This document shows, piece after piece, positions 10,410-27,088 of a DNA stretch of 32,000 nucleotides (position 1 is the first letter of the stretch; each line of letters opens with the position of its first letter). Source of the stretch: Desulfotalea psychrophila LSv54 (GTDB lineage: Bacteria > Desulfobacterota > Desulfobulbia > Desulfobulbales > Desulfocapsaceae); assembly GCF_000025945.1 (NCBI RefSeq), contig NC_006138.1, positions 2,280,001 to 2,312,000 of the forward strand, written 5' to 3'. A model generated the notes under the pieces. It did not search any database and was not told the origin of the DNA. It saw nothing but the letters and a program-made list of their open reading frames with translations. A program made the position numbers and the translations under genes.

Positions 10410-10587
10410 CTTTGAGCTCCTCAACCTTATGTTCATGAGAGAGACTTACGCCAACCCTGCGTAGACCACCTTGGCAGAGATCAAAGCGAAGAGAGAGTGA
10501 ACCACTAAAATCCTGCTCCAATTTCTCCAAGGCAGCATCAAGAGATGCCAGGGCTTTCTCTCGTAACCTGTTTTTTTTGAGAGTCAT
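10402..10587 (-). CDS. small hypothetical protein
   Basis: 61-aa ORF that overlaps the TerS start by 8 nt and fits the tightly packed operon. No motif recognised. Confidence 0.4.
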   Translation of the reverse strand: MTLKKNRLREKALASLDAALEKLEQDFSGSLSLRFDLCQGGLRRVGVSLSHEHKVEELKDG

Positions 10588-10593
10588 TTGGTT

Positions 10594-10893
10594 TCAACCT
10601 TTCTTGGCAGAAGATCCAGCAACCTGCTGTTTGTCGCATTTACTCTTAGCCTGGGCGCCAACTTTTATTTCAGCAATTGCAGTTTCATTACTGCGTACTC
10701 GGGCATCAAGGCCATTAAGCTTATCGCTTAGGGTTGTCAGGGCGCGGGTATTGTTGTCCAGTGACACTTTCATCACACTATTGGTATTATTCACATCTCG
10801 TTTCCACAACCAGACAACCAGGCCGCTTAGCAACACAAAGATCCACGCCGCAAACAAAGGATTACCAGTAAAGAACAGTTCAACCCCTTTCAT
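10594..10893 (-). CDS. membrane-anchored coiled-coil protein, possible spanin-like lysis accessory
   Basis: 99 aa. N-terminal TM segment (LFAAWIFVLLSGLVVWLW) followed by a heptad-like helical region. Immediately downstream of the holin-like gene. Confidence 0.4.
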   Translation of the reverse strand: MKGVELFFTGNPLFAAWIFVLLSGLVVWLWKRDVNNTNSVMKVSLDNNTRALTTLSDKLNGLDARVRSNETAIAEIKVGAQAKSKCDKQQVAGSSAKKG

Positions 10894-11543
10894 TTAATCG
10901 TTCCTTCAGAGTGGCTCTGTGGGCTTATAAGGCGTGCGGCACCCTTCGCTGCCATGCGATCCCCAAACCACCAACAAACTGCCGTGGTAGTCAGATAGAG
11001 CAGGGAGCAAGTAACCTGGGTGACAATTTCAGCCGATTGTGTCGTGGTTAAAGCACCGCCAGAACTCTCTAGAATCGACCAGGCCCGACGACTAATCCAG
11101 GTGGAGAGTATCAACAGATAGAGAGTGATCCCTGGCCGAGCAAAACCCTTAACCGTATCCACCAGACCAAAAAGAATACAGATGAATACTCCGGCTGGCT
11201 GAGCCAAAATCGCTACCCAGCCCGTGGTGGAAAAAAGTTTTCCGGCCAGGGCCGTGGAAAGGGTCGGTTTATTGGCAACAATAAGGTGGGCGGCATAAGC
11301 CTCGGTTTCAGCTAGATGTAGGGCTCCTTCAGTCTGTACTCGAGCAACCCTGATATTGGCCTCGGTCTCAGCTAGCATCGCTTGACTCTCCGCCTGTACT
11401 AGCTTCAGCTCATGCTCACGCCCCTGGGCCCTATCCTTCATATCAAGTTCTCTAATCTTTCTCTGATTCCAACTGGACCAAATGGTTCCCGCAAGACCCG
11501 TAATTCCACCAAAAAGAATATCCCAAGGCATATCAATCTCCAC
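10890..11543 (-). CDS. holin-like multi-TM protein (resembles the 3-TM GTA-type holin family)
   Basis: 217 aa. An N-terminal Ala/Glu-rich helical segment is followed by three hydrophobic segments (GWVAILAQPAGVFICILFGLV, ITLYLLILSTWI, VTCSLLYLTTTAVCWWF). Sits between the putative lysin and the spanin-like gene. Confidence 0.55.
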   Translation of the reverse strand: MEIDMPWDILFGGITGLAGTIWSSWNQRKIRELDMKDRAQGREHELKLVQAESQAMLAETEANIRVARVQTEGALHLAETEAYAAHLIVANKPTLSTALAGKLFSTTGWVAILAQPAGVFICILFGLVDTVKGFARPGITLYLLILSTWISRRAWSILESSGGALTTTQSAEIVTQVTCSLLYLTTTAVCWWFGDRMAAKGAARLISPQSHSEGTIK

Positions 11544-11967
11544 TCTCTATAGTAAGTTCAAAATCTTCACCGCCCATGGCTTTGTGCAGCCTGCGGATGG
11601 TTGCTTTTGAAAGTAAAACGGCTCGCTGTCCAGCCAGGTGCCCACGTTTCTTACCATGTAATATGCAGCCGAGAACATTGGTTACATAGCCTTTGGTCCT
11701 GTCGCCGGCCACATTGCCTGAATGATGCAGAACATGCGATCGGCCCTCTACATTGCGCACCTGGTAAACCCAGCCAAAACGAGGAGACTTTACCAAACGA
11801 CAGAGATAGACACCCAAAGGAATAGAGGAGACATTGGGCCGATTATCCCGCCACGGCAGCTCCAAGGTGTAGGAGCGAAATCCCCGTTCAGGGCAGCGAA
11901 AGACTCCCTCTGTGCCCTGGTCCGTGCTCTTCTCGCGTCTTAAGTTTGCCTGGAGCATATTCACCAT
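11533..11967 (-). CDS. DUF5675-like protein, candidate endolysin / cell-wall enzyme
   Basis: TLELPWRDNRPNVSSIPLGVYLC...SPRFG...VRNVEGRSHVLHHSGN...GCILHG matches my memory of the DUF5675 pattern (TLE..IP.G.Y...SP+F..VPGR..IL.H.GN...GCIL.G). It is the first gene after the late promoter and terminators, next to the holin. Confidence 0.5.
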   Translation of the reverse strand: MVNMLQANLRREKSTDQGTEGVFRCPERGFRSYTLELPWRDNRPNVSSIPLGVYLCRLVKSPRFGWVYQVRNVEGRSHVLHHSGNVAGDRTKGYVTNVLGCILHGKKRGHLAGQRAVLLSKATIRRLHKAMGGEDFELTIESGD

Positions 11968-11976
11968 TTTTTACAT

Positions 11977-12011
11977 AAAAAAACTCCGTACTCTTGAACT
12001 AAGAGACGGGG
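11977..12011 (-). terminator. late-leader terminator 2
   Basis: Minus strand reads CCCCGUCUC-loop-GAGUACGGAG followed by U7, 10 nt before the 11967 start codon. Confidence 0.55.
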
Positions 12012-12030
12012 CTAAAAAAGAGAATGACAC

Positions 12031-12063
12031 AAAAAAAGACCCAATCTCAACCGAGACGGGGCC
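12031..12063 (-). terminator. late-leader terminator 1
   Basis: Minus strand reads CCCCGUCUC-GGUU-GAGAUUGGG followed by UCU7. Shares the GCCCCGTCTC arm with terminator 2. Confidence 0.55.
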
Positions 12064-12097
12064 TTGCCTGTGCACATTTTCTCACCTTATTTAATTT

Positions 12098-12126
12098 ATG
12101 ATAGCCAGCTGTGGACAACTTTGCAA
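12098..12126 (-). promoter_or_regulatory. sigma70-like late promoter (PR'-like)
   Basis: Minus strand has TTGCAA (12126-12121), a 17-nt spacer and TATCAT (12103-12098). It lies 20 nt downstream of the Q-like gene and upstream of the two terminators. Confidence 0.5.
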
Positions 12127-12145
12127 ACAGGATCGACAGAGTTTT

Positions 12146-12526
12146 CTAATCAATGCATATAGACGATGAAGAGCTTTCACTATCCTTTTCTAACCAGGCA
12201 GCAACCCAAGATTCACCCATACTAACCAGCTGAGTAACCTTGCGCCGATCCATCCCCAGTTCTCGGGCAACATAACTCGTATTCTCCTTACTCAGATAAT
12301 AGACCATAAGGGCTTCGGCAACGGATGCCTTTCTTTGTCTCAATCGGGCAATGGCAGTATCAATGAGCATTGCCTCCTCGTCACTGATCTCTACGGGCTG
12401 CAGCTCATAAGCAGGATAGTCCTGCCAGCAACAACTTATAGCAAGTCTGCCATAACCAAGATGGGGCACAGGTGATACACGAAGCCATAGGGCATAGTTT
12501 GTCAATTTCTCAGATATAAACTCCAT
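12146..12526 (-). CDS. Q-like late-gene antiterminator / late activator (sigma70 region-4-like HTH)
   Basis: 126 aa. The C-terminal part (ALMVYYLSKENTSYVARELGMDRRKVTQLVSMGESWVAAWL) looks like the HTH of phage antitermination Q / sigma r4 proteins. The gene, promoter, terminators and lysis-gene order is lambdoid. Confidence 0.45.
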   Translation of the reverse strand: MEFISEKLTNYALWLRVSPVPHLGYGRLAISCCWQDYPAYELQPVEISDEEAMLIDTAIARLRQRKASVAEALMVYYLSKENTSYVARELGMDRRKVTQLVSMGESWVAAWLEKDSESSSSSICID

Positions 12527-12574
12527 ACCTCCCTCCTATTGCATAAAACATAACTTGGCTAAGATAATTTTTCG

Positions 12575-12612
12575 ATCTCAAGAAGTGGCGGGTTCAAATC
12601 CCGACATCGGAA
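12575..12612 (+). other. tRNA 3'-end-like fragment, putative att core
   Basis: GCGGG-TTCAAAT-CCCGA forms a T-arm with one mismatch, followed by CATCGGA-A (acceptor 3' strand plus discriminator). No matching 5' acceptor, D arm or anticodon arm lies upstream, so it is a fragment. It is 48 nt from the integrase stop. Confidence 0.45.
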
Positions 12613-12659
12613 AAATAAAATACCATTTATTATTAAATATTTAAGTATATGGACAGCCT

Positions 12660-13883
12660 CTATTCCTGTTCATTGTGACCAAAACTGTGTCCAAAATCTT
12701 CCTTGCCCTCGACTCTTGTTCCAGAGAACTGTTTTTCCACGGAAAACCCGTCTAAACTCTTCAAATTGGGGATATAGCGACCATAGGTTCTATAAACCAT
12801 TGAGGTATCCACATGGCCCAGGGTTTTGGCCACCCATTCAGGTGTCTCTCCCAGGGCGAGGGCCCAAGAGGCGAAGGTATGCCTAGTCTCATACATACGC
12901 CGATATTGCAGTTCCAAACCTGCAAATGCTTCAACCCATACCACACTGCGCAGTTTGTCCTGTGAAATAGGCAGGCGATCTTTGTTGACGAAAACATAGG
13001 GACTGTTGATTCCCGCCGTCAGTTTACGCTGGCGCAACAGAATTCTCCGTAATCCCGGTCGCAATAAGAGCCTGCGTCTACTCTCATGGGTTTTGAGATC
13101 TTCCTTCTCTCTTCCCCGTACCCTGCTTAACTCTATGTGGATATATTCATGGTCGATGGCAACCCATTTCAGGGCCACCTGTTCCGAGGGCCTCAATCCC
13201 GTCTGTACGGCAAATTCAAAATAGGGCCGATACCAAGGGGATATATGCGTTATAAAAACCTGCCACTCTTCAAAACTAAAGGGTTGAACTCGAAACTTCC
13301 TGGGCCGTGGAAGTTTACACCGGGTAAAGGGATCCGGAAAATCCAGCCAGGCATACTCATCCACGCAATCCTCTATAATTACTCGCAGGGGGATGATGAC
13401 GTTGCGAATACGTTTAGCCGAAAGTGGTTGCCCCTGTTCACTCCTCTTGCCCTTCATGGTGGCAATAAACTTCCTCATTCGGGCAGAGGTTATCTCCGCA
13501 AAATTCAAATCACGAAAATAGGGCAAAACATGTCTCTGTAGAGCACTTTGGTAGTCCCGAATCTGATTCTCCGTCATCCCACTTCCCATATCGGCAAACC
13601 ACTGCAGTACATAATCACCAAAAAGAAGTTCAGAGGGGTGGGTGGTCACTTCCCTACCCTCCAGCTCAGCAAAAAAGGCCCTTCTCCTACTTCTGGGAAA
13701 ACGCTTGCCAAAACTGAAAACCCCATTATCTATCTCTGCCATAATCAAATCGAGCTGCCGCCGAAGAATTTGCCGGTTCTCTCTGGTGTCGACAAGGCCA
13801 GATGATTCACGAACGCGCTCCCCCATATAGCGAAAATCAAACCAGATCCTGTTGTGACGGACATAGAGAGTTCCCCTACCCAC
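12660..13883 (-). CDS. int: tyrosine site-specific integrase with N-terminal arm-binding (DUF3596-like) domain
   Basis: 407 aa with a GTG start. N-terminus (LYVRHNRIWFDFRYMGERVRESSGLVDTRENRQ) fits the arm-binding domain. The catalytic region has ...GLRPSE..., TRHTFASWAL and LGHVDTSMVYRTYGRY (R..HxxR..Y). Confidence 0.9.
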   Translation of the reverse strand: MGRGTLYVRHNRIWFDFRYMGERVRESSGLVDTRENRQILRRQLDLIMAEIDNGVFSFGKRFPRSRRRAFFAELEGREVTTHPSELLFGDYVLQWFADMGSGMTENQIRDYQSALQRHVLPYFRDLNFAEITSARMRKFIATMKGKRSEQGQPLSAKRIRNVIIPLRVIIEDCVDEYAWLDFPDPFTRCKLPRPRKFRVQPFSFEEWQVFITHISPWYRPYFEFAVQTGLRPSEQVALKWVAIDHEYIHIELSRVRGREKEDLKTHESRRRLLLRPGLRRILLRQRKLTAGINSPYVFVNKDRLPISQDKLRSVVWVEAFAGLELQYRRMYETRHTFASWALALGETPEWVAKTLGHVDTSMVYRTYGRYIPNLKSLDGFSVEKQFSGTRVEGKEDFGHSFGHNEQE

Positions 13884-13884
13884 C

Positions 13885-14106
13885 CTATCGCCTCAAACCC
13901 TTTTCGCAAGCCAGGCGCTTCATGGCTCGGTGAAAAAAGTGATCCCAATACCAGAAATAATAAGGCCGGTCACCTGCCCCAGGGCGATACTCTCCCTGCT
14001 GATTTAAGTTCTTAACCTCGGCGTCCGCCACCCTCTCAGCCTTCGGAATAAGGGCATTGATTGCCCGTCTATATATAAAATTCTCCATCGCCTCCTCCCT
14101 TCTCAT
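13885..14106 (-). CDS. small hypothetical protein upstream of int (excisionase position)
   Basis: 73-aa ORF ending 1 nt before the int start. No HTH recognised, so any excisionase role is inferred from position only. Confidence 0.35.
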   Translation of the reverse strand: MRREEAMENFIYRRAINALIPKAERVADAEVKNLNQQGEYRPGAGDRPYYFWYWDHFFHRAMKRLACEKGLRR

Positions 14107-14170
14107 GAATTTCCAACCATCGCCAAAATACTCTCCTCCAAGAGTACACCCACTTTTTACCGCTGGACGT

Positions 14171-14200
14171 GTATGGCCGGCTATGGCCGCCTATGGCCGT
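14171..14200. repeat. three tandem 10-bp repeats, TATGGCCG core
   Basis: gTATGGCCGg, cTATGGCCGc and cTATGGCCGt, at the GC-rich to AT-rich transition. Confidence 0.9.
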
Positions 14201-14557
14201 CTACATGCTATTAAAGGGTCTTGACCTGTTTTTTTGGAGGGTGATTTTTTACTGGTTAGGATGGGGGAAATGAGGTTATTTGCTTCTAATAATCTTTTTG
14301 CTTGATTAGTATTGTTGGTGGTGCTTAAGTATTTTGGATTATAAAGAAATTTTCGTAAGTTGATTAGGTCCTTCGTAGAGGGCGAGGGATTTGGATGATG
14401 TGGTGATATTCAGTTATCGCTCGTGTCGAATGACATCAGGGAATCGGGTAATAATTTTTTGTCTGTTTTGGCTAAATCAATGCGTTATTGGCGTAAGGAC
14501 TTTCATTGTTTTCGCTTATTTAATATTTAAAACGATAATATCTTCTAAGGAATATTC

Positions 14558-16003
14558 ATGTACAAATTACGATTACAAGATGTTTATCTTGGTGAAAATG
14601 ATGGCAAAAAAGAAGCTGTCTATAGGTCAGATTTTGAAAGATATTTTGTAGATATAGATGACAACTATGAAAAGCTAAAACAAGATAAGTATTTTTTGGT
14701 TTTAGGGAGAAAGGGATCAGGTAAGACCTATTTGGGGCAATATGTTAAGAGAATGTCTTCAAAAGATCCTCTCCATTTTTGTGAGATCAGTTCATATAAA
14801 GACTTTAAATTTCAAGAGTTAATTCAATTGAAATCAGGTGATATCACTCCAAATGAATATTATGAAATATGGAGATGGTTGCTATTACTTGACATAGGGA
14901 AACACTGCCTCGCTGACAACGGCATAGAGGATTGTGATGACAAGAGTAAACTTCATGCATTCCCTGAGGCTAATTACAAATCAATCGAAATTGATGCTAA
15001 AAAAATCGTGGAAGTAACACAAAAACAGCAAGTCAGAGGCGGATTCTTAAAATCATTCGTGGATATCTCTGATGGTGAAAAACTAGAGGAAGGAACATAT
15101 CTGGATTATATTGACGACTTGGAAAAGGTTGTCTTTTCCTTGCTCTCTCTTTCAGAGAGTTCGTACACCTCAATTTATGATGAGTTAGATGATCGTTTTA
15201 GAAATGATGATTATTACCGCAACTCAATAATCAGTCTAATTAAGGCCGCAGATTACATTAATTTAAAAGCAATAGAAGTAAACTCCAAAGCTAAGGTAGT
15301 AATATTACTGCGGTCTGATATTTTCTCTATATTTAACGATCCAGATCTAAACAAAATAAAAAGAGTTAATACGTTGAAGATTGATTGGGGAACTCGTGTG
15401 TCAGTCGATACTCCTCTAATTAAAATGGTAATTTATAAAGCAAAACAATCTAGTTCCTTAATGTCTGTACTTTCCAATGAGCAGATTTTTCGTCACTTAT
15501 TTCCACAAGATATTAATTACATTAATCCTGAGAGATATATACTTGAGAGATCTTTTTTTCGACCAAGGGATGTAATTACAATATTGAATTTAATCATAGA
15601 AAAATATCCAAATTCCGAATATTTTGGTTGGAAAAGTTTTCGAGTCGTTAAGCAGGATTATTCAGAGTATCTGCTTGATGAAGTAAGGAATGAAATGTTT
15701 GGACATTACCTCGATGAAGAAATCGATAACGCACTTAAATTACTAAAAAATTACAATAAGCATTTTATTGAGTATGATGAATTGAAAAAATATATGACAA
15801 TAAACTCTTATCACTACCCTGGCCTTGATTTAGAAAAAATGCTCATTGGTTTATTTAAATTTAATGCAATAGGAAATAAGTGGTTCAATGAGTACAAAAA
15901 AAAGCAATATTATACTTGGGCTCATCGTGATGAGAAAGCTGATTTAGATTTAAATAAGACTATTGTTATCCACCTTGGTCTAAGGGAAGCGCTATCAATG
16001 TGA
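14558..16003 (+). CDS. P-loop NTPase (KAP/STAND-like), cassette-borne
   Basis: 481 aa. Walker A is LGRKGSGKTY. Walker B is SIYDELDDRF. Later motifs are LLRSDIF and FFRPRDVITILN. AAGGA RBS. Followed by attC-like site 1. Confidence 0.7.
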   Translation: MYKLRLQDVYLGENDGKKEAVYRSDFERYFVDIDDNYEKLKQDKYFLVLGRKGSGKTYLGQYVKRMSSKDPLHFCEISSYKDFKFQELIQLKSGDITPNEYYEIWRWLLLLDIGKHCLADNGIEDCDDKSKLHAFPEANYKSIEIDAKKIVEVTQKQQVRGGFLKSFVDISDGEKLEEGTYLDYIDDLEKVVFSLLSLSESSYTSIYDELDDRFRNDDYYRNSIISLIKAADYINLKAIEVNSKAKVVILLRSDIFSIFNDPDLNKIKRVNTLKIDWGTRVSVDTPLIKMVIYKAKQSSSLMSVLSNEQIFRHLFPQDINYINPERYILERSFFRPRDVITILNLIIEKYPNSEYFGWKSFRVVKQDYSEYLLDEVRNEMFGHYLDEEIDNALKLLKNYNKHFIEYDELKKYMTINSYHYPGLDLEKMLIGLFKFNAIGNKWFNEYKKKQYYTWAHRDEKADLDLNKTIVIHLGLREALSM

Positions 16004-16044
16004 TGTGAACTACCGTCTAACATCACATCGATGAGATATTAATC

Positions 16045-16105
16045 AGACAACCAACTGTTCCACTGGACCCGCAAACAGCGCGTGCCAGTGAACGCCACGT
16101 TATAC
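16045..16105 (+). repeat. attC-like site 1
   Basis: AGACAAC-CAACT-GTTcCACTGG-(18 nt)-CCAGTGAAC-GCCAC-GTTATAC. One extrahelical base on the L'' arm. Confidence 0.65.
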
Positions 16106-16142
16106 AAAATAAAAATACCAGTAATTAAAATGGGAGCATAGA

Positions 16143-16904
16143 ATGGCATCAAAGTATTTGTCATCCCTATCGAAGGATGATTATTTAGAGCTTACAAAAA
16201 AACTGTGGAACATTCAGAATCATAAATGTTTTATATGTGAAGAAGAAATTGATTTAGATTTAAACACTACAAATATTGACCATATTGTACCTTTGGCAAA
16301 TAAGGGTAAAGATGCTGAGGTGAATTTTGCAGTCACACATGAAAGTTGTAACAAGTCTAAACAGGACGCAAATTTAAAGATTGCAAAAATACTACAAAAA
16401 CTTAGTAAAATTCAAAAGTCAATACAAAGTAAAACAAGTAAATCAGCGTCACTCAAGGATATACTAAAAAGCTATAATGGTTCAAAGTATGAGTTTAAAT
16501 ACAAGATTGAAGGTATGGAATTAAAATATTCATTTTCAGATATTGGAGATAACAAAACATACCAAACACCAATTTATACTGACAATCTTTCGAAAGAACA
16601 AACATGCTTTATAGAAGTTCCAGTTGAGTACCTATATCATGATGAAATTATTAACCCACGCGGGATAAATAATAGTATCGGAAAGCTTATTAAAGAGTTT
16701 GATAAGCAAAACCCACAATTGCATCTTAGTCTCGCTCGGATAGAAGATGACAGGTTAAAAATATTTGATGGGCAGCATAAAGCCGGTGCTCAAATTTTAT
16801 TAGGAACTAAAAAATTGGTTGTGCGAGTTTTTTTGGAACCAAATATAGACCGGTTGACAGAAACAAATACAATGCTGGAGTACTCTACGGCAAATTGCTT
16901 TTGA
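16143..16904 (+). CDS. HNH nuclease plus start of DGQHR (DndB/ParB-like) domain; 5' part of a frameshifted gene
   Basis: HNH motif is CFICEEEIDLDLNTTNIDHIVPLANKGKDAEVNFAVTHESCNKSKQD. DGQHR-type motif is IFDGQHKAGAQILLG. The ORF stops at 16904, while the +1 frame is already open from 16858. Confidence 0.7.
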   Translation: MASKYLSSLSKDDYLELTKKLWNIQNHKCFICEEEIDLDLNTTNIDHIVPLANKGKDAEVNFAVTHESCNKSKQDANLKIAKILQKLSKIQKSIQSKTSKSASLKDILKSYNGSKYEFKYKIEGMELKYSFSDIGDNKTYQTPIYTDNLSKEQTCFIEVPVEYLYHDEIINPRGINNSIGKLIKEFDKQNPQLHLSLARIEDDRLKIFDGQHKAGAQILLGTKKLVVRVFLEPNIDRLTETNTMLEYSTANCF

Positions 16905-16914
16905 TAAATCAATA

Positions 16915-17757
16915 ATGAGGCAATTGAACAATACGCTTTATTCGGAAAGGGTTAAAAAGTATCAAGTCGCCCATAACCTAAAAGAAGATGATTATTCTTT
17001 TTCAGAGCAGCAGCTTATTGATTTTTTCAAAGGAGATGGGGCCAATATAAAAAAATACATTATTGACTCTATAAAACATTCAATAACGAATGCAAAAGAC
17101 AATAAACTAAAAGACTATATTGATTTTGACGGGAAAGCCAAAGAGTTGCCTATTTCATACAGTGCTTTTGATAAAACTATTTTGTCTTCATTTGTCAATT
17201 CTAAACTTGTTTTAAAAACAGCGATAGATTCAAAAACAGATGAAGGGTTAAACCCAAGAGAATTGGAAATAAATCAAATTGTAAAAATTCTAAGTCTACT
17301 GGCTGAGAATATTTACATGAACAAGTTTTTGCCTGAATTAGGAACAGCACGAGTTGAAAAGAAAATTATTGATAAAAAGGATACAAATATAACAGACGAT
17401 CATTTAATAGCATACAGAATCAGCAAAGAAGAGATTCTGTATAATTGGTTGCAATATCTGAAAAAAGTCATCACAACATACTTTGCAAATACTGGTAAAA
17501 TGGTTGCTGAAGAAAAAATTTTTCAGACACCGTTTGATGAACAACTTTGGATAAATATTGGAAATTTTATCAAAAATCTTAGTCAACTACCACTGTGGAA
17601 AGACAGATCAATGGCAAGTACTATATTTTCTGGTAAAAAGAATTATGATTATTGGAGAGAGATCTTTGAAACAGGTAGTAGTTTAGATGGAGCAATTGTT
17701 TTGACTAATCCGTTAAATTTTATAGAAATGATAAAGGGTACCGAAAATTTTGTATAA
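16915..17757 (+). CDS. 3' part of the HNH-DGQHR gene
   Basis: 280-aa ORF in the +1 frame relative to 16143-16904. That frame is open from 16858 (..STLRQIAFDKSIMRQL..). Both parts sit within a single cassette between attC 1 and attC 2. Confidence 0.6.
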   Translation: MRQLNNTLYSERVKKYQVAHNLKEDDYSFSEQQLIDFFKGDGANIKKYIIDSIKHSITNAKDNKLKDYIDFDGKAKELPISYSAFDKTILSSFVNSKLVLKTAIDSKTDEGLNPRELEINQIVKILSLLAENIYMNKFLPELGTARVEKKIIDKKDTNITDDHLIAYRISKEEILYNWLQYLKKVITTYFANTGKMVAEEKIFQTPFDEQLWINIGNFIKNLSQLPLWKDRSMASTIFSGKKNYDYWREIFETGSSLDGAIVLTNPLNFIEMIKGTENFV

Positions 17758-17810
17758 CAAAAAAATGCAGGGGACGCAAAAAGCCGCGCCCCTGATTTTA
17801 GGCGTTAAAT
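17752..17810 (+). repeat. attC-like site 2
   Basis: GTATAAC-AAAAA-AATgCAGGGGaCGC-AAAAAGCC-GCGCCCCTGATTTT-AGGC-GTTAAAT. Two extrahelical bases on L''. The ORF stop TAA lies inside R''. Confidence 0.7.
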
Positions 17811-17839
17811 TTACCAAATAAAATAGGTTGCAATAACAA

Positions 17840-18967
17840 ATGTCACAAGTTGATTTGATTCGCCAAGAACTTGAGTTGGTAAATTTCCCTAGTAAAGAAA
17901 TACTACCCCTCTATCCAGATTTAATTGAAACTGTAACCAAAGCAATTTATTTAGCACCTCACGAGAACAAAGAGCCTTACTGGGGGATAATTCTTTCTAA
18001 TAATACACCAACTTCTCCGCATGAATTAGTAGATGATTTTAAAGATTCTTATTGTGATGGAAAAAGAACCTTTGGATTTTCCTCTAATGGAAGCAATGAG
18101 TTAAAAACTGTAGTTTTCCAAAGAGAAATGAATAACATAGATCTTCTTGAACTATGTAATAATAAGCAAACTTGTATCATCAACAGACAAGGGAATACTC
18201 TCAAAATATATTTTAATAATACAATTTATATTTGCGAAAATAGAGTTTGGAAAGTACTGGAAAAAGTTGACGCTCAAATAGTTGAAATAAAAAAACACTA
18301 TAGTGCTGTTGACGCAGATCTCGTCAGAAAATTGCTGACTTACTCATTCCACAATCTTTCTACCAATAAAATTGGTGCCACAATAATATATTGGCTTAAG
18401 GACGACTTTACTTCTACCTATGCAACCCTGCCGGACTCGATAAGTCTTGATTTTAACAATGAAAATCATCAGGAAATATTAAAACAATACCTTAGAAATA
18501 ATGATGGAGCAATTGTCATAAATTCAAGTGGCAAGATAATCGGTGGCAAAGCACACTTAAGTTTTTCTGATGACAGTAAATCCTTTATCCAAATTAAAGA
18601 CAAGGGAACCAGACATAACTCAGCAGCTAGATTCTCTTTCGATAATTCAAAATCCATTGTTATTACAGTCTCAGAGGACGGTCCTGTTTCAGTTTTTTCT
18701 GAGGGGAAAAATATTGCCAATTTAAGTTCCATTGATCCTTTTGAACAAAATAAAATTATTCATGAAATTGCAGAAGAAAATGATGCGATGTCCTATGAAG
18801 ATAACTTTAATATAACTTGCAGTAAGTGCGGGAAAACCTTTTATGTAAGTGTATTAACTGTCTCTGGTTGGCGAGAATGGGAAAATGAAAGATGTGATAT
18901 TTGTGGTACAGAAATTCATTCCGCAAAGTGCTTTACAATAAACTCAAGATTAATAAAAACTATCTAA
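17840..18967 (+). CDS. DAC (DisA_N / diadenylate cyclase fold) domain protein with unknown N-terminal domain and C-terminal zinc ribbon
   Basis: NKIGATIIYW, NNDGAIVINSSGKIIGG, KGTRHNSAARFS and IVITVSEDGPVSVFSEG align motif for motif with CdaA/DisA (KIGALIVI, HDGAVII, GTRHRAA, VVSEETGxIS). The C-terminus has CSKCG...CDICG. Confidence 0.8.
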   Translation: MSQVDLIRQELELVNFPSKEILPLYPDLIETVTKAIYLAPHENKEPYWGIILSNNTPTSPHELVDDFKDSYCDGKRTFGFSSNGSNELKTVVFQREMNNIDLLELCNNKQTCIINRQGNTLKIYFNNTIYICENRVWKVLEKVDAQIVEIKKHYSAVDADLVRKLLTYSFHNLSTNKIGATIIYWLKDDFTSTYATLPDSISLDFNNENHQEILKQYLRNNDGAIVINSSGKIIGGKAHLSFSDDSKSFIQIKDKGTRHNSAARFSFDNSKSIVITVSEDGPVSVFSEGKNIANLSSIDPFEQNKIIHEIAEENDAMSYEDNFNITCSKCGKTFYVSVLTVSGWREWENERCDICGTEIHSAKCFTINSRLIKTI

Positions 18968-19037
18968 CCAGGCGTTTAACCCGTTCGCTATGCTCACTCG
19001 GACTCGCTGAAGCTCGCTGGTTAACTTAACGTTATGA
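18962..19037 (+). repeat. attC-like site 3
   Basis: ATCTAAC-CAGGC-GTTtAACC-(37 nt)-GGTTAAC-TTAAC-GTTATGA. The ORF stop TAA lies inside R''. Confidence 0.6.
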
Positions 19038-19046
19038 ATTAAAACC

Positions 19047-19694
19047 ATGATCGATCAAATTGTTACTATAATCGGAGGCTCATACGTCGAGCCAATTTGT
19101 ACCCTCCTTGAAAAGTTGGAAAATTACGACCAACCTAAAGTCGGGCCGTTGGGTTCTGGCTATTATATCAATGGATATTCAGCATCAATTTGCCTTTTAA
19201 GCATCGCACTTCTTGAGTCTTACGTAATGAGAGTAAGATATATCAATGAAGCCAGTGAGAACGAAATCAACAGAATGCCCGTAGGAAAATATTTGGCCAA
19301 TCTATACGAAGATTTCCCTATGCTTGATGAAGTAGGTGAACTTTTTGTATTACGTGACACTATCACTCACAATCACCTGTGGGAACTATACTTAGATAGA
19401 AATGAAGAAGAAATTGGCCTCTCAGAAGAAATCAGAAAAAGCACGGGTGACTGGAAGTATTCAAATTACGTTGATCTAGATTTGAAGCAAACTAAAAAAC
19501 TGCAATTTACTGTTGTCCCAATAAGTATAGGTAGGTATGAGGTTATAACTGTTCTTAAAAATGTATGGAAGGTACTAATATATCTAGAAAACAAAGACTT
19601 AAGTCAATGCCCTGTTTCCGCTCAACACTATAAATATAAAGGCCAAATGCTAAATTTAGGTCAAATAGCTGAAGTCGTTGATAGATATATATAA
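19047..19694 (+). CDS. hypothetical cassette protein, possible HEPN-like (Rx4H) domain
   Basis: 215 aa, mostly helical in character. VLRDTITHNH contains an R-D-x3-H match to the HEPN R[NDH]xxxH motif. No obvious RBS. Confidence 0.3.
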   Translation: MIDQIVTIIGGSYVEPICTLLEKLENYDQPKVGPLGSGYYINGYSASICLLSIALLESYVMRVRYINEASENEINRMPVGKYLANLYEDFPMLDEVGELFVLRDTITHNHLWELYLDRNEEEIGLSEEIRKSTGDWKYSNYVDLDLKQTKKLQFTVVPISIGRYEVITVLKNVWKVLIYLENKDLSQCPVSAQHYKYKGQMLNLGQIAEVVDRYI

Positions 19695-19699
19695 TAATT

Positions 19700-19828
19700 T
19701 CATAACAAGGTGTTAAAAAGGGACTGCGTGAGGCTCGGCGTTTAAAAGTTCCGAGTTAGACCAAAAAGAAATCTAAATCAAAAAAGTAAATACTAAAGGC
19801 CCCGCAGCCCCTTAACTCAACGATAAAT
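19700..19828 (+). repeat. attC-like site 4 (long, VCR-like) with non-canonical R' GATAAAT
   Basis: TCATAAC-AAGGT-GTTAAaaaGGGaCTGCG ... CGCAGCCCCTTAAC-TCAAC-GATAAAT. Confidence 0.5.
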
Positions 19829-19848
19829 CGGACCGCTACGACGCTCCA

Positions 19849-20011
19849 ATTTATCGACCCGAGGTTAAGTTCCCTCAGATTGCCAACCGGATCGTCAAGC
19901 GCTCCGGTTATCAAACCAATGAAACCGACTGCGACCATTTTCAATTCAGGACCTGCTGTGCGGCGCCCAAATTATAAAAATAACCTCGCGGCTCATCTCG
20001 GGTCGTTCGGT
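19849..20011 (+). repeat. attC-like site 5 of an ORF-less cassette
   Basis: R'' ATTTATC plus GACCCGAG (19849-19863) pairs with CTCGGGTC plus R' GTTCGGT (19997-20011). R'' is the exact complement of the preceding GATAAAT. Confidence 0.4.
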
Positions 20012-20057
20012 GGGTAAACAATTGCAGCATTAAATTTGCACACAACAGAAAATATAA

Positions 20058-20879
20058 ATGTACATAATTGAATTACTATTAAGTCTTTTGTTAGCAACCT
20101 TATTGCTCTTTATTGTCGGTAACCAAACAGTTCTCTCCTGTTTGGATAAAGTTAATAATTTTGTAGTGTTCATTGGTGAATGCAACATTACGTTGTTTTT
20201 AAAAAGCTTTAAACACAACATTCACAATTTCTATAATAAACTAGAAATAATATCATTTTTTGAAAGTATTAAGCCCATTGTTGATGTCTTTGCAGGACTT
20301 GCTGCAATTCTCGGTATTTTAATTCCTCTTATCGCCTTTCTGCGCAGTGAACGAGACGCTATTAAAATTAAGTTAGTAAAAGTAACTGAGAATTTTTCCT
20401 CCCAAAAATGTTCTTTTTCATTTACCTTTGCCAACTGTAAAAATTATCCTGTTACGCTTCACGAAATAAATATTTACAATAAAAGATTTTATCTAGTAAC
20501 AGAAAGTACCGCTCACTCTGTTAATTTAAGTGGGCCTGGCTTTTCTATAAGTGACAGGGTTTACACAAACAAGCTTGGAAACGAAATTCCTGCATCTGGT
20601 AATTTTTCAATTATTCTAAGTAACGGTAACATTTTTGAGCATGATGATTTATATGTTCACTTGCATACTTCAGATGGCTTTCAAACTATTAAGTGTAAAA
20701 ATATTGAGTATTTAAACACTGGCGAACTAGAAACTTTCCACAACATGTATGATATTGATGATGGGCTTAAAGCAAGGTTAATTTATTTTGGATTACAGGT
20801 CCCATGTAATTACATAAATACAAAGGCTAGAGTAGCTGCAAAGAAATATTCTTTTGGCAAAAATGAAACTAATGAGTAG
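20058..20879 (+). CDS. hypothetical membrane protein (cassette-borne)
   Basis: 273 aa. Two N-terminal hydrophobic segments (LLLSLLLATLLLFIV, VFAGLAAILGILIPLIAF) precede a soluble domain with beta-strand character. Followed by attC-like site 6. Confidence 0.55.
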   Translation: MYIIELLLSLLLATLLLFIVGNQTVLSCLDKVNNFVVFIGECNITLFLKSFKHNIHNFYNKLEIISFFESIKPIVDVFAGLAAILGILIPLIAFLRSERDAIKIKLVKVTENFSSQKCSFSFTFANCKNYPVTLHEINIYNKRFYLVTESTAHSVNLSGPGFSISDRVYTNKLGNEIPASGNFSIILSNGNIFEHDDLYVHLHTSDGFQTIKCKNIEYLNTGELETFHNMYDIDDGLKARLIYFGLQVPCNYINTKARVAAKKYSFGKNETNE

Positions 20880-20888
20880 GCAATATAC

Positions 20889-21019
20889 ATCGAACAAGTC
20901 GCTCAAGAGGGGCGGCAAGAGGCTATGCTGTTTGCCAAACTCAAAGTTGAATCAAAACTTATAAATACTAAATCAGTTTCGGGGTAATTCACTTGCCGCC
21001 CTTTAGCTTAACGTTAGCT
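20889..21019 (+). repeat. attC-like site 6 (long, VCR-like)
   Basis: ATCGAAC-AAGTC-GCTcAAgaGGGgCGGCAAG ... CTTGCCGCCCTTTAGC-TTAAC-GTTAGCT. The CTCAAGAGGG arm resembles Vibrio-type chromosomal attC repeats. Confidence 0.65.
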
Positions 21020-21033
21020 GTTAAAAGGTATAA

Positions 21034-21162
21034 ATGCAGAAACATATTACAGGTATATGCATAACCACTATATGGTTTATTTTGGTAGGTATTACTGTAT
21101 TTTTAAATTGGGAATCAGCTACGAAATTAGGTCGTGATGCCAAAACGTTGAAGACATGGTAG
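21034..21162 (+). pseudogene. small membrane-protein ORF of the next cassette, interrupted by an IS1-like end
   Basis: ATG at 21034 after AAAAGG. MQKHITGICITTIWFILVGITVFLNWESATKL runs straight into the IS inverted repeat at 21130 and stops at 21160-21162. Confidence 0.4.
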
Positions 21163-21425
21163 CGTGTGATTTTTTTAAGGTTATGATATGGCTACAGTAA
21201 AAGTACCTTGTCGGTTTTGTGGTAGCACTGATGAGGTAAGGCGGCACGGCAAGGGCAGTAATGGAAATCAAAGATTTCGGTGTTCAGATTGCAAGCGAAC
21301 CTTCCAGCTAGCCTACGCCTATGAAACCGATTCGAAATGAAAGATACAGTCCTGGCAATGATGGCTGCTTCGTGATACTACAAGAGTTATTAAGGTTGGC
21401 TGAGTGGTGCACATGGGAGCCACGT
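21130..21425 (+). mobile_element. IS1-family element remnant (left inverted repeat plus decayed insA)
   Basis: GGTCGTGATGCCAAAACGTTGAAG resembles the IS1 IR (GGTGATGCTGCCAACTTACTGAT). A 50-aa ORF at 21188-21340 (MATVKVPCRFCGSTDEVRRHGKGSNGNQRFRCSDCKRTFQL...) matches the InsA zinc finger. HTH-like pieces (DTVLAMMAA, RDTTRVIKVG) follow in shifted frames. No right end was found. Confidence 0.7.
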
Positions 21426-21440
21426 TGGGGGATCATCAAC

Positions 21441-21770
21441 CTACTTTTGGTAAAGGCCATCTTTTTCGTACTGCTCTTGAGGTGAAGAGTCATCGCCAAC
21501 TCCCGTATACTCAATGAAATTTTTTGCCAACAAAAAAGAGATTATGGCCTGAGCCTCTTCACTATGTTTGGGATCGTTGTTACCCAATAGCGCCATGGTT
21601 TTGTCGGGGTCATAGGTGTGGTATCGTTTTTCCGGTAATGCTGAGTTATCTTCTGTGGGTTTCCATTTGGTTGCGAGGCTCACCTGCCAGAGATTTGATT
21701 GTGCATCTTTTTTTGTTATAAGAACGGCATTTTGATGGCTATGATTGATGATTCTGTATATTTTTTTCAT
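21441..21770 (-). CDS. hypothetical protein
   Basis: 109-aa ORF with an AAAGGA RBS. No motif recognised. Confidence 0.5.
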   Translation of the reverse strand: MKKIYRIINHSHQNAVLITKKDAQSNLWQVSLATKWKPTEDNSALPEKRYHTYDPDKTMALLGNNDPKHSEEAQAIISFLLAKNFIEYTGVGDDSSPQEQYEKDGLYQK

Positions 21771-21929
21771 CCTTTATCCCTCTGGAATTTTATTATCACC
21801 TATTTAATAAAATAGGGAAAAAAGCAGAAGGTCAAGGTTGTTGAGGCTGTTTCTTTGTAAGAAAAATGGCTATATAGAGTCAATTATTTGTCTTGATTGA
21901 CATTAATTTTCGTTTGTGAGGATAAAAAG

Positions 21930-22131
21930 AAAGAGAGTTTTCCCCCTTAGAAAAAGGGGAGACATTGTCTTTGTTGATAGAGTAAATTTATCATCGGTCA
22001 TGAAAAATTAGGATTGATTAAAAATTTTCTATTTGCCAGCGTACTCACCTGAATTAAAATCAGATAAATACTTAAATCGTGACCTAAAAAATGGCATACG
22101 GAGTTCAATTCCGGCTAAGGAAGTATTTTAA
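21930..22131 (+). pseudogene. IS630/Tc1-mariner family transposase C-terminal remnant
   Basis: One frame reads ..KRGDIVFVDRVNLSSVMKN*D*LKIFYLPAYSPELKSDKYLNRDLKNGIRSSIPAKEVF*. The LPAYSPEL(N) box is the IS630 DDE hallmark. There are two in-frame stops. Confidence 0.65.
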
Positions 22132-22245
22132 ACACCCAACTATTACTGTTGAACACAGGTTAGTAAATCAATGCCGACACAACCAACCACACTCTGCTTC
22201 TTCTACTCAACAAGCAGTGTATGCACTCCAGCAGTCCATTATTAC

Positions 22246-23238
22246 TCAATCTGCCATTGTATTTGAAATTTGTGAAAACTTTTTTTCAACCCTCATAAAG
22301 GCATCAATAATATCAGGAGCAAACTGTTTTCCCCTCTCCGCTTTTAATATTCGACAGGACTCTTCATGGGAAATAGCTTCCTTGTAACAGCGTTTACTCC
22401 GTAGCGCATCATAGACATCCGCAAGCGACATAATCCTTGCAGACAGGGGTATTTCTTCTCCCAGCAGGCCTTGAGGATAGCCTCCACCATCCCATCTTTC
22501 ATGATGGGACATTACAATCTCAATGGCTATTGTAAAAAAAGATTCAAATTCAAGCTTCTCTTCCGCTGCCCTAAGAATCTCGGCGCCAAGCTCGCAATGT
22601 TTCTTGATTATTTTAAATTCTTCGTCGGTGAGCTTCCCCGGTTTTCTTAAAATATGGTCAGGAATACCAACCTTGCCAATATCATGAACAGGAGCTACTG
22701 TAACAAGGTTTTCTATATAAGCATGTGTCAACTGTGAGTTATACCTGGGGGAGCGAGAAAGTTCTTCCGCCAATGCCTTAACGTACTGAGAAGTTCTTTC
22801 CAGATGTTTACCCGTCTCCTCGTCCCTCATTTCAGCCTCATATGCTAAAGCAAAAATGGTGACATTTTCAACCTGAGTGAGTTGAATGTTTTTACTAATA
22901 ATTTTTTCATGCCTCTTTTTAATGGAGACAAGCATATATGCCTGTAGTAATATTCCTATAAATACAAATATAGCGCCGAAAAAAAATACAACCGCAGTAA
23001 ATAAAATTCCAACCACATGTATATTAAAAACAAAACAAATCAAAACAGCCAGGTAACCGATAAAGAAAAAACACATTAAAGACAAATGTATTTTGTGTAG
23101 GCGATATATGGTTTTTTTTCTATCCTCTAACAGAGCCTCAATACCTTGAATTGTTAAAACATACTTAACAATACTCACTAACATCACCAGGGCACCCAAA
23201 GCAATAAGCACTAATGAGAGGATTATAATATTATTCAA
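22246..23238 (-). CDS. membrane-anchored HD-GYP domain phosphodiesterase
   Basis: 330 aa. About four N-terminal TM segments, then VAPVHDIGKVGIP (HD) and SHHERWDGGGYPQGL (GYP). Confidence 0.9.
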   Translation of the reverse strand: MNNIIILSLVLIALGALVMLVSIVKYVLTIQGIEALLEDRKKTIYRLHKIHLSLMCFFFIGYLAVLICFVFNIHVVGILFTAVVFFFGAIFVFIGILLQAYMLVSIKKRHEKIISKNIQLTQVENVTIFALAYEAEMRDEETGKHLERTSQYVKALAEELSRSPRYNSQLTHAYIENLVTVAPVHDIGKVGIPDHILRKPGKLTDEEFKIIKKHCELGAEILRAAEEKLEFESFFTIAIEIVMSHHERWDGGGYPQGLLGEEIPLSARIMSLADVYDALRSKRCYKEAISHEESCRILKAERGKQFAPDIIDAFMRVEKKFSQISNTMAD

Positions 23239-23390
23239 GCTGACTCCTTATTCCAATAAGTTGAGTAAAGATTGCACCTACTTCAAAGGATAAAAATAGT
23301 GTCCATAAAAGTTCAGCCAGATAATAGACTCTACACTATCCCTCTCATTAACAAATCACACCATGAATTTTGAAAAATAGCAATTTTTAT

Positions 23391-23585
23391 CTACGATCCA
23401 CAACCAGCAACAATCTGTTTTCGTTGCCAATCCTCAATAAGCAGGGTGTTGGACTCCCACCGGCCACGCACCTTCACCGCCGGGAAACCACGGCTTGCTA
23501 TGGCCTGCCGAATAGTCTCTTTGTTTCTGCCCGCATGGCTGCTGATCTCATCCATGCCCACCAGTATTGTGCCTCTCTTTTTCAT
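23391..23585 (-). CDS. small HTH DNA-binding protein (excisionase/AlpA-like)
   Basis: I take the start as the ATG at 23585 (MKKRGTILVGMDEISSHAGRNKETIRQAIASRGFPAVKVRGRWES...). The track start at 23642 is probably an over-extension. Confidence 0.45.
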   Translation of the reverse strand: MKKRGTILVGMDEISSHAGRNKETIRQAIASRGFPAVKVRGRWESNTLLIEDWQRKQIVAGCGS

Positions 23586-23658
23586 CCTGCCACCCTGTGA
23601 TATCATCCTGGTGTATCTGCTTTCCGCATCGCCCCGAAACAAACCACCCAGAAATAAA

Positions 23659-24072
23659 CTATAGCCCCAAGCGCAACGCCTCCTTCTCCTGCCGTATCAG
23701 GCAGGCCCGATTGAAGGCATTTTTCTTCCCATGCTTTTTAATCGAAACGGAGGTTTTGCCCCGCTTTCCCTCGGGCGTCACCCAGGTGGCCTCATAACGT
23801 TCCCGTTTTTCATTGAGCAGCACCCCTATAACACCGGTTCCTCCACGGCTTTTGCTGAACATCATCTGGTCCGTTCTGGGTTTGCCAATTTCTTTTTCCT
23901 TCTGGTTACGCCATGCCGTCGCAGCCTGAAGTGCTGATTCATTCCCTCCATTTTTTTTATCTGAAAAAAACTTGCTATGCATACGCCCCTGAAATGTGAT
24001 TCTTACATACCAGCCGTATGTATTCTTTGATTCCTGAGCCACTCTGCTGATGCCCTTAATCTTCATGCTCAT
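23659..24072 (-). CDS. AP2-domain DNA-binding protein (two AP2-like repeats)
   Basis: YGWYVRITFQGRMHSKFFSDKKNGGNESALQAATAWRNQ, and a second repeat GVIGVLLNEKRERYEATWVTPEGKRGKTSVSIKKHGKKNAFNRA. Confidence 0.6.
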   Translation of the reverse strand: MSMKIKGISRVAQESKNTYGWYVRITFQGRMHSKFFSDKKNGGNESALQAATAWRNQKEKEIGKPRTDQMMFSKSRGGTGVIGVLLNEKRERYEATWVTPEGKRGKTSVSIKKHGKKNAFNRACLIRQEKEALRLGL

Positions 24073-24259
24073 CGCCCTCTTCTTCAGGATAAAGTCGTTG
24101 ATTATATGTCAGTTCCCTTTGCCGATGCCCAACTATTTACATGATTCATTAATATTGTTTAACAGAAATAAAATGCTAGAACTATAACTTTTTTTATCCT
24201 ATCTGGAGAAAAGGCTAGGGCGAGAGAGCCAGTCAGCCCGTGACTCTCAGCCCCAATTC

Positions 24260-24781
24260 TCAACCATTTCCTGGTAAAATATCTTTAAATGAAGAACCCT
24301 GGATCCTCTCGGTATTTTCACGGTAAAGCTTCCGTAATTTGTTCTTTTCTACTTCAAAATTGGCCATATCTCCTCGCGCGATAGAGCTGGCTATCCGGGC
24401 CATATATTCTGCCGATTGTTGAGAGCTCAGCACTCCTGCAAGTTGCATGGAGATCACCGCTGAATTCACCGCTCCCAGCTGCTCATCCATCTCCCGTGTC
24501 GGACCCTTTTTTATTACCACGGGAATATCGCGACCAAGTCCTTCCTCAAGTAACAAATGTAATTTGCTCTTTTGCACTTTCGACCAGACAATCTCTCCCG
24601 AGGCGTCAATTCTGCCCACGGAAAAACCGTTTTCCTGAAGCTCTGTCAGAAGTTTTGCAAACCAGACAGTCCCTCCCTTTCCCAGTTCCTTATCTACGGA
24701 TCGTCCATTCTGAGCAGCTCGATAGGCGCAGATAAAATTTTTGATATTCTCTCGGCCGATAATAGCTAAGGGGCCATTCAT
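24260..24781 (-). CDS. hypothetical early-region protein
   Basis: 173-aa ORF whose start overlaps the stop of the replication gene at base 24781. Confidence 0.5.
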   Translation of the reverse strand: MNGPLAIIGRENIKNFICAYRAAQNGRSVDKELGKGGTVWFAKLLTELQENGFSVGRIDASGEIVWSKVQKSKLHLLLEEGLGRDIPVVIKKGPTREMDEQLGAVNSAVISMQLAGVLSSQQSAEYMARIASSIARGDMANFEVEKNKLRKLYRENTERIQGSSFKDILPGNG

Positions 24782-25710: not shown

Positions 25711-25762
25711 GGCATACCTTCATGTCTATAAGAGGGGACACATTCTGCTGCCGGCCCTGTCT

Positions 25763-26470: not shown

Positions 26471-26504
26471 CTCGAGTTCCTCGGTTATGGTAAATTTGTT
26501 GAGA

Positions 26505-26882: not shown

Positions 26883-27069
26883 CTTTTTTCTCCTCGAAAT
26901 ATAAACTTACCAATTTTCCACTCCAGTGAGGGCAGCCCCGACAGCGAACGTCTTGGCAGTAGGCACAAAAACTCCGACCGCCATACTTTTTGTCCCTGTC
27001 GAACCAAGGCGTTCCCTTGGTGTCACTTGGGTAGGCGCTGCACCCTTGCTTTCTTTTCAATGAACCCAT
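26863..27069 (-). CDS. small Cys-rich (putative zinc-binding) protein
   Basis: 68 aa containing C..C..C..C (FCAYCQDVRCRGCPHW). Confidence 0.4.
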   Translation of the reverse strand: MGSLKRKQGCSAYPSDTKGTPWFDRDKKYGGRSFCAYCQDVRCRGCPHWSGKLVSLYFEEKKDGHKTQ

Positions 27070-27088
27070 GGATTAAAGGTCATTGGGG

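Follow-up and report, generated by a model that had tools for sequence, protein, structure and literature searches.

A cassette array within a probable prophage accessory block

We identified a series of integron-type gene cassettes in a 32,000-nucleotide window of the Desulfotalea psychrophila LSv54 chromosome (NC_006138.1, positions 2,280,001 to 2,312,000; coordinates below are window positions unless a comparison locus is named). The array occupies 14459-21129 and consists of six complete cassettes, every one of which is terminated by an attC-like imperfect palindrome, and a seventh that is truncated; all are on the + strand. It very probably represents a CALIN (cluster of attC sites lacking integron integrases), that is, a fragment of a cassette array lying inside the accessory block of a prophage, since it has no integron integrase gene (intI), attI site or promoter (Pc) of its own. 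The array shares a low-GC mosaic block of about 11 kb (about 12530-23500) with an arm-type tyrosine integrase and the remnant of an IS1-family insertion sequence (IS), and this block is located between the early and late modules of the phage. The GC content is 30-35% in the array versus 44-52% in the flanking phage genes (1-14000 on the left and 23500-30000 on the right), and the sites themselves reach 40-56%, in agreement with an initial annotation of this DNA, made from the letters alone, that had described an AT-rich block with GC-richer sites. That annotation bounded the array at 14458 and 21130. The right-hand position is the first base of the IS1-family end, and the left-hand start is placed solely by the hexamer TTGTCT, whose chance probability in that spacer is roughly 0.1.

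Complementarity across cassette junctions

An attC site is an imperfect palindrome of roughly 55-140 nt with the order R''-L''...L'-R' and with AAC and GTT cores. All six palindromes of the initial annotation are present at the positions listed in Table 1, and its R'' and R' heptamers and the extra bases that it placed on the L'' arms were correct. Its central observation, that each R' is complementary to the R'' of the following site, is also borne out. At the five junctions R' agrees with the next R'' at 7, 6, 7, 7 and 6 of seven positions, compared with 4, 5, 4, 3 and 3 for R' against the R'' of its own site. When counting is restricted to the four variable positions, 18 of 20 agree (versus 1-2 of 4 for the own R''), and the score becomes 22 of 24 if the putative start of cassette 1 is included. 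Of the 720 possible orders of the R'' boxes, only 2 attain a score of 18 of 20, for which the binomial P is about 1e-7.

The individual junctions are instructive. The 5' end of cassette 4, TTATGA, complements R''(4) TCATAAC at all seven positions once the preceding G is included, and that of cassette 6, TTCGGT, complements R''(6) ATCGAAC at six of seven. R'(4) GATAAAT and R''(5) ATTTATC match at 7 of 7 through a compensated GAT/ATC core. The hexamer TTGTCT at the 5' end of cassette 1 complements AGACAA of R''(1), which lends weak support to that exact start. Control integron arrays obey the same rule relating R' to the next R''. These comparisons show that the cassette junctions bear the signature of G|TT recombination.

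Covariance model of attC sites

We constructed a covariance model (R2) from 21 attC sites, all of which adjoin real integron integrases: 10 are from Shewanella prophage M16-3 (MZ568829) and 11 from Vibrio phage Va_90-11-286_p16 (MK672802). The model includes both arms and handles the loop as an insertion, and the window was searched on both strands with filters off. It replaced a first model built from arm-only constructs, which was unable to bridge the variable loops. In the 21 training sites, 90.5% of cells agree with the proposed pairing, with strong covariation, and R2 recovers all of the training sites as well as left-out sites of the same arrays.

As the initial annotation would predict, four of the six sites are the four best matches of this model in the window, and all four are full-model, + strand matches with the ends originally annotated. 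Site 2 (17752-17810) ranks highest with 25.7 bits (E 3e-4), followed by site 6 (20887-21019; 18.5 bits, E 0.022), site 3 (18962-19037; 17.0 bits, E 0.05) and site 4 (19700-19828; 16.5 bits, E 0.069). The fifth-ranked match is trivial (E 1.8). Among eight attC sites of class 1 and class 2 integrons outside the training set, R2 finds four with 20-38 bits; those of aadB and aac(6')-Ib are missed, and those of OXA-1 and cmlA5 are nearly missed (E 3-10). About 70 kb of non-integron loci used as a negative control yielded one weak match (15.4 bits, E 0.84, in locus L004), and nothing at E <= 1 was found in 115 kb of further control loci. A weak match of 15.5 bits also falls in the attI1 region of class 1 integrons (L077/L078, 6941-6979, + strand). 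A scan of viral contigs with a 16-mer from an attC arm matched only unrelated coding sequences.

Recurrence of cassette 3 at other loci

Cassette 3, whose product combines a DACNK sensor domain with a diadenylate cyclase (DAC) domain (Pfam PF21753, 1.3e-47, and PF02457, 7e-18), was found again in two unrelated arrays, one in a Desulfolithobacter sp. assembly (L001) and the other in a metagenome contig (L003). Its 1163-nt body, comprising the leader and open reading frame (ORF), has 81-85% DNA identity to the body in these two loci. The similarity begins exactly at G|TTAGAT or G|TTAAAT, and the 60 nt before this junction and the 60 nt after the cassette are at the background level of about 50% identity. 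The neighbors of the cassette differ in all three loci. In each locus R'' is ATCTAAC, matching a TTAGAT 5' end. However, the attC site following the gene is different every time: about 124 nt in L001 (11123-11252), 76 nt in our window (18962-19037) and 58 nt in L003 (11126-11183). Because these three sites share only the R'' box ATCTAAC, attC sites may be swappable on a conserved gene.

This comparison of DNA sequences shows at least one cassette of the array to be an independently mobile unit. Together, the junctions, the covariance model, the recurring cassette 3 and the absence of IntI from the window form four independent lines of support for the initial annotation of an integron-type cassette array. 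We have so far encountered the sensor-coupled diadenylate cyclase only in cassettes, and a genome scan with a profile of the DAC cassette returned only distant homologues (<=34%), none of them in attC arrays. An integron integrase is absent from the 12 kb of L003; this contig, which has the closest copy of the DAC cassette, carries a large serine recombinase (6357-8069, - strand) about 1 kb upstream of its cassettes. For the cassette 1 ATPase, a 52%-identical homologue is found as a Vibrio-type cassette in L074, whose attC site scores 52 bits with R2. The closest homologues of this ATPase (77-81%, L072 and L073) are outside an attC context.

Anatomy and folding of the sites

The layout that the initial annotation attributed to most of the sites, with an unpaired spacer between R and L and extra bases only on the L'' arm, holds for sites 1, 2, 3, 4 and 6 and does not extend to site 5. 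Both the AAC and GTT cores are present in sites 1, 2, 3 and 6, while site 4 has GAT in place of GTT and site 5 has ATC in place of AAC. Site 1 has the length and layout of the aadB and catB3 attC sites of class 1 integrons and carries one extra C as the fourth base of L'', the same position as in those two sites. Its bottom strand has a predicted DNA fold of -13.4 kcal/mol (z -3.4). The bottom strands of sites 1, 2, 4, 5 and 6 fold better than shuffled sequences (z -2.0 to -3.4); that of site 3 does not (z -0.4). The arm duplex of site 6, at -16.6 kcal/mol, is the strongest in the window. Sites of the type of site 3 also flank cassettes in L003. A simple structural scan was tried as a detector and picked up only sites 1, 2 and 6.

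The ORFs tend to end at or close to the sites. The stop codons of ORF2b (the second ORF of cassette 2) and ORF3 lie inside R'', and those of ORF4 and ORF6 lie 5 nt and 9 nt before it. The initial description of the remaining stop codons as a few nucleotides before R'' does not apply to ORF1, which ends 42 nt upstream.

Cassette contents

The cassette 1 protein is assigned to the Sll1717 family by NCBIfam NF047389 (310.7 bits versus a cutoff of 75) and has in addition a 25-bit, sub-threshold match to an NCBIfam anti-phage model. In cassette 2, Pfam HNH covers residues 29-75. An intact relative of 537 aa (P0251) aligns through residues 1-243 with the first cassette 2 ORF (72%) and through residues 259-534 with the second (66%); the two reading frames overlap at 16858-16904, and the split occurs just after the residues TETNT. 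Identification of cassette 2 as a DGQHR/DndB protein was rejected, as it had no Pfam support. The proteins of cassettes 4 and 6 have no family match in Pfam, PADLOC or NCBIfam; the latter has a hydrophobic N-terminus as judged by eye.

Cassette 5 is nearly all site 5 and may represent a cassette that is empty or fossil, or a different kind of element. Cassette 7 starts with the TTAGCT of R'(6) and is cut by the IS end at 21130; the matching R'' AGCTAAC is not found downstream in the window. The only similarity detected by PADLOC is that of the HNH domain to Cas9 and PtuB models. A role of the cargo in defense is plausible. Given the IS1 truncation, the frameshift in cassette 2 and the ORF-less cassette 5, the array is a partly decaying fragment of a larger array and not a working integron.

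Table 1. Cassettes, attC-like sites and neighboring features, by window position
Feature	Position	Strand	Description
Cassette 1	14459..16099	+	ORF 14558-16003, 481 aa; P-loop ATPase, Sll1717 family
Cassette 2	16100..17804	+	HNH-domain gene split by a frameshift into ORFs 16143-16904 and 16915-17757
Cassette 3	17805..19031	+	ORF 17840-18967, 375 aa; DACNK sensor and DAC domains
Cassette 4	19032..19822	+	ORF 19047-19694, 215 aa
Cassette 5	19823..20005	+	183-bp unit without ORF, nearly all site 5
Cassette 6	20006..21013	+	ORF 20058-20879, 273 aa
Cassette 7	21014..21129	+	Truncated; 5' part and start of a small ORF only
Site 1	16045..16105	+	61 nt: AGACAAC-CAACT-GTTcCACTGG...CCAGTGAAC-GCCAC-GTTATAC
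Site 2	17752..17810	+	59 nt; ORF stop codon inside R''; fold z -2.7
Site 3	18962..19037	+	76 nt; L'' GTTtAACC pairs with L' GGTTAAC
Site 4	19700..19828	+	129 nt; long Vibrio/Shewanella-like type; R' GATAAAT; fold z -2.0
Site 5 (doubtful as attC)	19849..20011	+	163-nt hairpin; -28 kcal/mol, z -2.3; R'' ATTTATC
Site 6	20889..21019	+	131 nt; fold z -2.6
Phage late genes	1-12526	-	Include virion proteins, small terminase and probable lysis genes
Major head	3429-4703	-	Late module
Portal	5960-8260	-	Late module
Large terminase	8261-9961	-	Late module
Q-like antiterminator	12146-12526	-	Late module
Arm-type tyrosine integrase	12660-13883	-	Pfam Arm-DNA-bind_2 and Phage_integrase; divergent from array
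73-aa ORF	13885-14106	-	Upstream of integrase; divergent from array
Spacer	14107..14458		Between 73-aa ORF and cassette 1; three phased TATGGCCG repeats at 14171-14199
IS1-family fragment	21130..21340	+	Terminal repeat GGTCGTGATGCC... and N-terminal InsA fragment 21188-21340
Low-GC DNA	about 21400-23500		Includes HD-domain gene
HD_5 (HD-GYP-like phosphodiesterase) protein	22246-23238	-	Low GC; no homologue in related phages
AP2-domain protein	23659-24072	-	Between IS fragment and replication genes
Phage early genes	23659-28271	-	Include replication initiator 24781-25710 and cro-like helix-turn-helix (HTH) protein
cI-like repressor	28360-29070	+	
PD-(D/E)XK (PD-(D/E)XK_4) nuclease	29078-30214		Starts 8 nt after cI-like repressor
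NgoFVII-type restriction enzyme	30942-31913		Low GC; no methylase in view

Phage genes on both sides of the array

The window contains a repressor, an integrase, replication genes, a terminase, a portal and a capsid in co-linear arrangement, as in a temperate tailed phage. Matches to PHROG cover the terminase, portal, capsid, Q, repressor and replication genes. The large terminase (TerL) is 64-65% identical to the TerL of several contigs of about 62-63 kb, and the structural module shows synteny with L029, L030 and L032. In L032, homologues of the early genes at 25763-26882 lie upstream of the terminase in conserved order and orientation. The distance between the early genes and TerL is 8.4 kb in L032 versus 15.8 kb in the window, and in related phage contigs this interval has neither int nor an array. 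In L032 it holds a small block on the opposite strand, and in a Shewanella phage with a related portal the replication and terminase genes are likewise separated by an opposite-strand accessory block. Scans of viral contigs with the integrase and with the portal produced no close relative.

Because both sides are syntenic with L032 and the relatives have no int or array at this position, the two flanks look like a single phage genome, with the block of int, array and IS as a likely insertion at an accessory hot spot. This synteny is in keeping with the initial placement of the array in the accessory region of a temperate phage. No tRNA genes were found in the window. The genes at 28360-31913, at its right, may constitute a repressor-linked prophage defense module.

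The IS1-family fragment that terminates the array is supported by tblastn identities of 62-67% to annotated IS1-family transposases. A second copy of the IS end, 84% identical, is located at 31957-31994 at the right edge of the window, and the two copies are in direct orientation and bracket the phage early region. A further candidate IS end upstream of the array (14241-14262) was rejected because it was no better than shuffled sequences.

The neighboring integrase and its surroundings

The initial annotation held that the recombinase near the array is an arm-binding phage integrase and not an integron integrase (IntI), and our searches agree. Six-frame tblastn with two IntI proteins found no IntI in the 32 kb window. 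The integrase at 12660-13883 has no match to TIGR02249, compared with 394 bits for a control IntI (M16-3), and its alignment with real IntI is limited to 12/28 residues. The broader statement that there is no integron integrase stands for the window; the host chromosome is listed with an In0 elsewhere (PMC9024848).

The spacer between the 73-aa ORF and cassette 1 has no recognizable attI or attC (no R2 match) and no similarity to the comparison loci. Just upstream of the 73-aa ORF that precedes int we observed three TATGGCCG repeats with 10-bp spacing, which may be binding sites for a regulator or for the integrase or an excisionase.

In L006, a relative of the integrase (59% identical) lies directly against the 3' end of a tmRNA gene. 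In the window, a 22-nt fragment that resembles the T-arm and acceptor 3' end of a tRNA, GGGTTCAAATCCCGACATCGGA, is found at 12590-12611 (+ strand), 48 nt downstream of the int stop codon and convergent with the gene. Its geometry is that of the tmRNA 3' end beside the related integrase in L006, and no second copy of this att core is present in the window. The fragment (core CGGGTTCAAATCCCGACATCGGA) has the appearance of an attP core that has not recombined, even though this DNA is chromosomal.

Weighing the interpretation

Several observations weigh against a CALIN inside a prophage. At the left boundary the base preceding TTGTCT is T and not G, and there is no consensus + strand promoter upstream of cassette 1. 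Site 5 is doubtful as an attC site: it exceeds the usual attC length, lacks the unpaired spacer, bubble and extra bases, and has no homologue in any comparison locus. R2 has no match at sites 1 and 5 (two of six); however, the model misses four of eight known attC sites, so this is within its normal false-negative rate. Searches of Rfam at gathering and permissive thresholds gave no attC match, and whether Rfam holds an attC model is uncertain. Cassette 2 is frameshifted, and PADLOC identifies no known defense system among the cassette proteins. The ends of the prophage are outside the window, and an un-recombined att core beside int leaves the joining of prophage and chromosome unexplained. 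Finally, the published table of integrons in this strain (see below) is without coordinates, and none of its entries can be assigned to the present array.

One alternative is that the array is the cargo of a separate integrative island, composed of the integrase, the small ORF, the CALIN, the IS remnant and the HD-domain gene, that was inserted into or recombined with the phage and moves by means of the island integrase. We regard this as possible, if somewhat unlikely. The closest relatives of the integrase (55-65%) are in non-phage contexts, including the one abutting the tmRNA 3' end in L006, and related phages have no integrase at this position; the tRNA-like att core just downstream of int and the distinct GC content of the whole block are likewise as expected for an island. 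However, the block is not bounded by a direct repeat or by a second copy of the att core, and its right end is an IS-mediated truncation. Missing, too, are the conserved genes of 317 aa and 408 aa found with this integrase in L005 and L006, where the small ORF upstream of int does not resemble the 73-aa ORF. Moreover, the array would still be physically within the prophage, so an island would refine the explanation of a prophage-borne CALIN and not replace it. We consider it distinctly improbable that the array is host chromosomal DNA caught between two prophages or at the junction of tandem prophages, with a phage integrated beside a chromosomal CALIN. An att core by int would be expected either at the end of a prophage or where two are joined in tandem, several CALINs are listed for the LSv54 chromosome, and the prophage ends are not visible in the window, but the flanks carry complementary modules without duplication and on the same strand, with cI, cro and replication to one side and Q, lysis, terminase and head to the other. 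In addition, homologues of both flanks are arranged in L032 with the order and orientation of the window, and the related Shewanella phage also carries its opposite-strand accessory block between replication and terminase genes.

It is scarcely credible that the palindromes are ordinary terminators or repeats similar to repetitive extragenic palindromic (REP) elements and resemble attC by coincidence. Such elements would account for GC-rich hairpins that follow ORFs, and the fold of site 3 is no better than shuffled sequences. However, a terminator scan found no + strand terminator and no coding-strand T-run at any site, and the six sites differ in sequence and length, contrary to REP families; on these grounds the generic repeats that the initial annotation had named as a competing explanation can be set aside. 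The complementarity between R' and R'' across cassettes, the four sites matched by the covariance model, and the break in cassette similarity exactly at G|TT in other loci also argue against coincidence. A cassette-array fragment inside the prophage accessory block thus remains the preferred interpretation.

Relation to known cassette arrays

IntegronFinder (Cury et al. 2016, PMC4889954; Neron et al. 2022, PMC9024848) defines CALINs as attC clusters without an integron integrase, asking for two or more attC sites on one strand that are separated by less than 4 kb and for the absence of intI within 4 kb. The array corresponds to this definition, and no IntI-like sequence occurs in any frame of the 32 kb; lacking intI, attI and Pc, the array is not a complete integron. 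Its closely spaced attC sites on a single strand, its single ORF per unit and its lack of intI are shared with other CALINs, and, as is often seen among them, an IS is present at one end. In about half of CALINs, as here, the host genome has an IntI elsewhere. What differs is the location inside a prophage. Table S3 of IntegronFinder 2.0 (PMC9024848) lists three CALINs, with 2, 2 and 3 attC sites, together with one In0 (a lone intI) on the LSv54 chromosome and an additional CALIN on an LSv54 plasmid. The published CALINs of this strain therefore have at most three attC sites each, versus five convincing sites and one doubtful site here.

The initial annotation regarded a phage as an unusual vehicle for cassettes, but there is precedent. 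Qi et al. (2023; PMC9892861) found three complete integrons, one In0 and 17 CALINs in 10,705 phage genomes, most of the phage CALINs having 2-3 sites, and reported that phage attC sites recombine with IntI1. Shewanella prophage M16-3 also has a cassette array among temperate-phage genes, with cassettes mostly of unknown function and in one orientation, and it has a CALIN between phage structural genes as well. However, M16-3 retains intI and a recognizable attI heading both of its arrays, and the LSv54 array has neither. The host here is a sulfate reducer of the Desulfobacterota and not a gammaproteobacterium. The LSv54 array is closest to the phage-borne arrays of PMC9892861, from which it also differs in size, with its five convincing attC sites and one doubtful site, and in the heterogeneity of these sites (59-163 nt). 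Phage Va_90-11-286_p16 of Vibrio anguillarum (MK672802) is similar in being a temperate phage with an array segment beside its integration module and in its proposed origin by imprecise or illegitimate recombination. This phage picked up intIA and host housekeeping genes together with part of a chromosomal integron, and the attC sites that it carries are homogeneous repeats of the VCR (Vibrio cholerae repeat) type, whereas the LSv54 array brought neither intI nor host core genes.

Cassette arrays are known to store anti-phage systems (bioRxiv 10.1101/2024.07.02.601686 and 10.1101/2024.07.02.601719). The LSv54 array has a similar defense-island flavor in its P-loop ATPase, its HNH nuclease fusion and its sensor-domain nucleotide cyclase. 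It differs in having no PADLOC match and in that one of its genes is broken.

Possible origin and implications

The cassettes were presumably assembled elsewhere by an integron integrase acting on the folded bottom-strand hairpins of attC sites. A piece of the array could then have been captured into the phage through illegitimate or IS-mediated recombination, a model that fits the array since it is cut by IS1 at 21130 and has a non-canonical left junction. In the lysogen the array would be static unless IntI were supplied in trans, and the host chromosome encodes one in its In0. The phage could transfer the whole array to new hosts. Its cargo would be accessory genes expressed by the lysogen, possibly for defense, one of which is apparently already a pseudogene.

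CALINs, phage-borne integrons and defense cassettes have already been described, and our finding opens no new category. It provides a well-documented case, from outside the Gammaproteobacteria, of a temperate phage with a multi-cassette integron array, and supports the idea that phages are a route by which cassettes move between cells. It also indicates that automated counts under-call such arrays, as no CALIN of LSv54 has more than three attC sites in the published table. The Sll1717-family ATPase, the HNH fusion protein and the DACNK-diadenylate cyclase are cargo that recurs as cassettes and can be tested. A bolder proposal, which we consider unlikely, is that the prophage is a shuttle that trades cassettes with the host integron, the IntI of the In0 excising and inserting cassettes at phage-borne attC sites. 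If true, the temperate phage of a marine sulfate reducer would sample a changing set of compact defense or signaling genes, among them the sensor-coupled diadenylate cyclase, and spread them among the Desulfobulbales.

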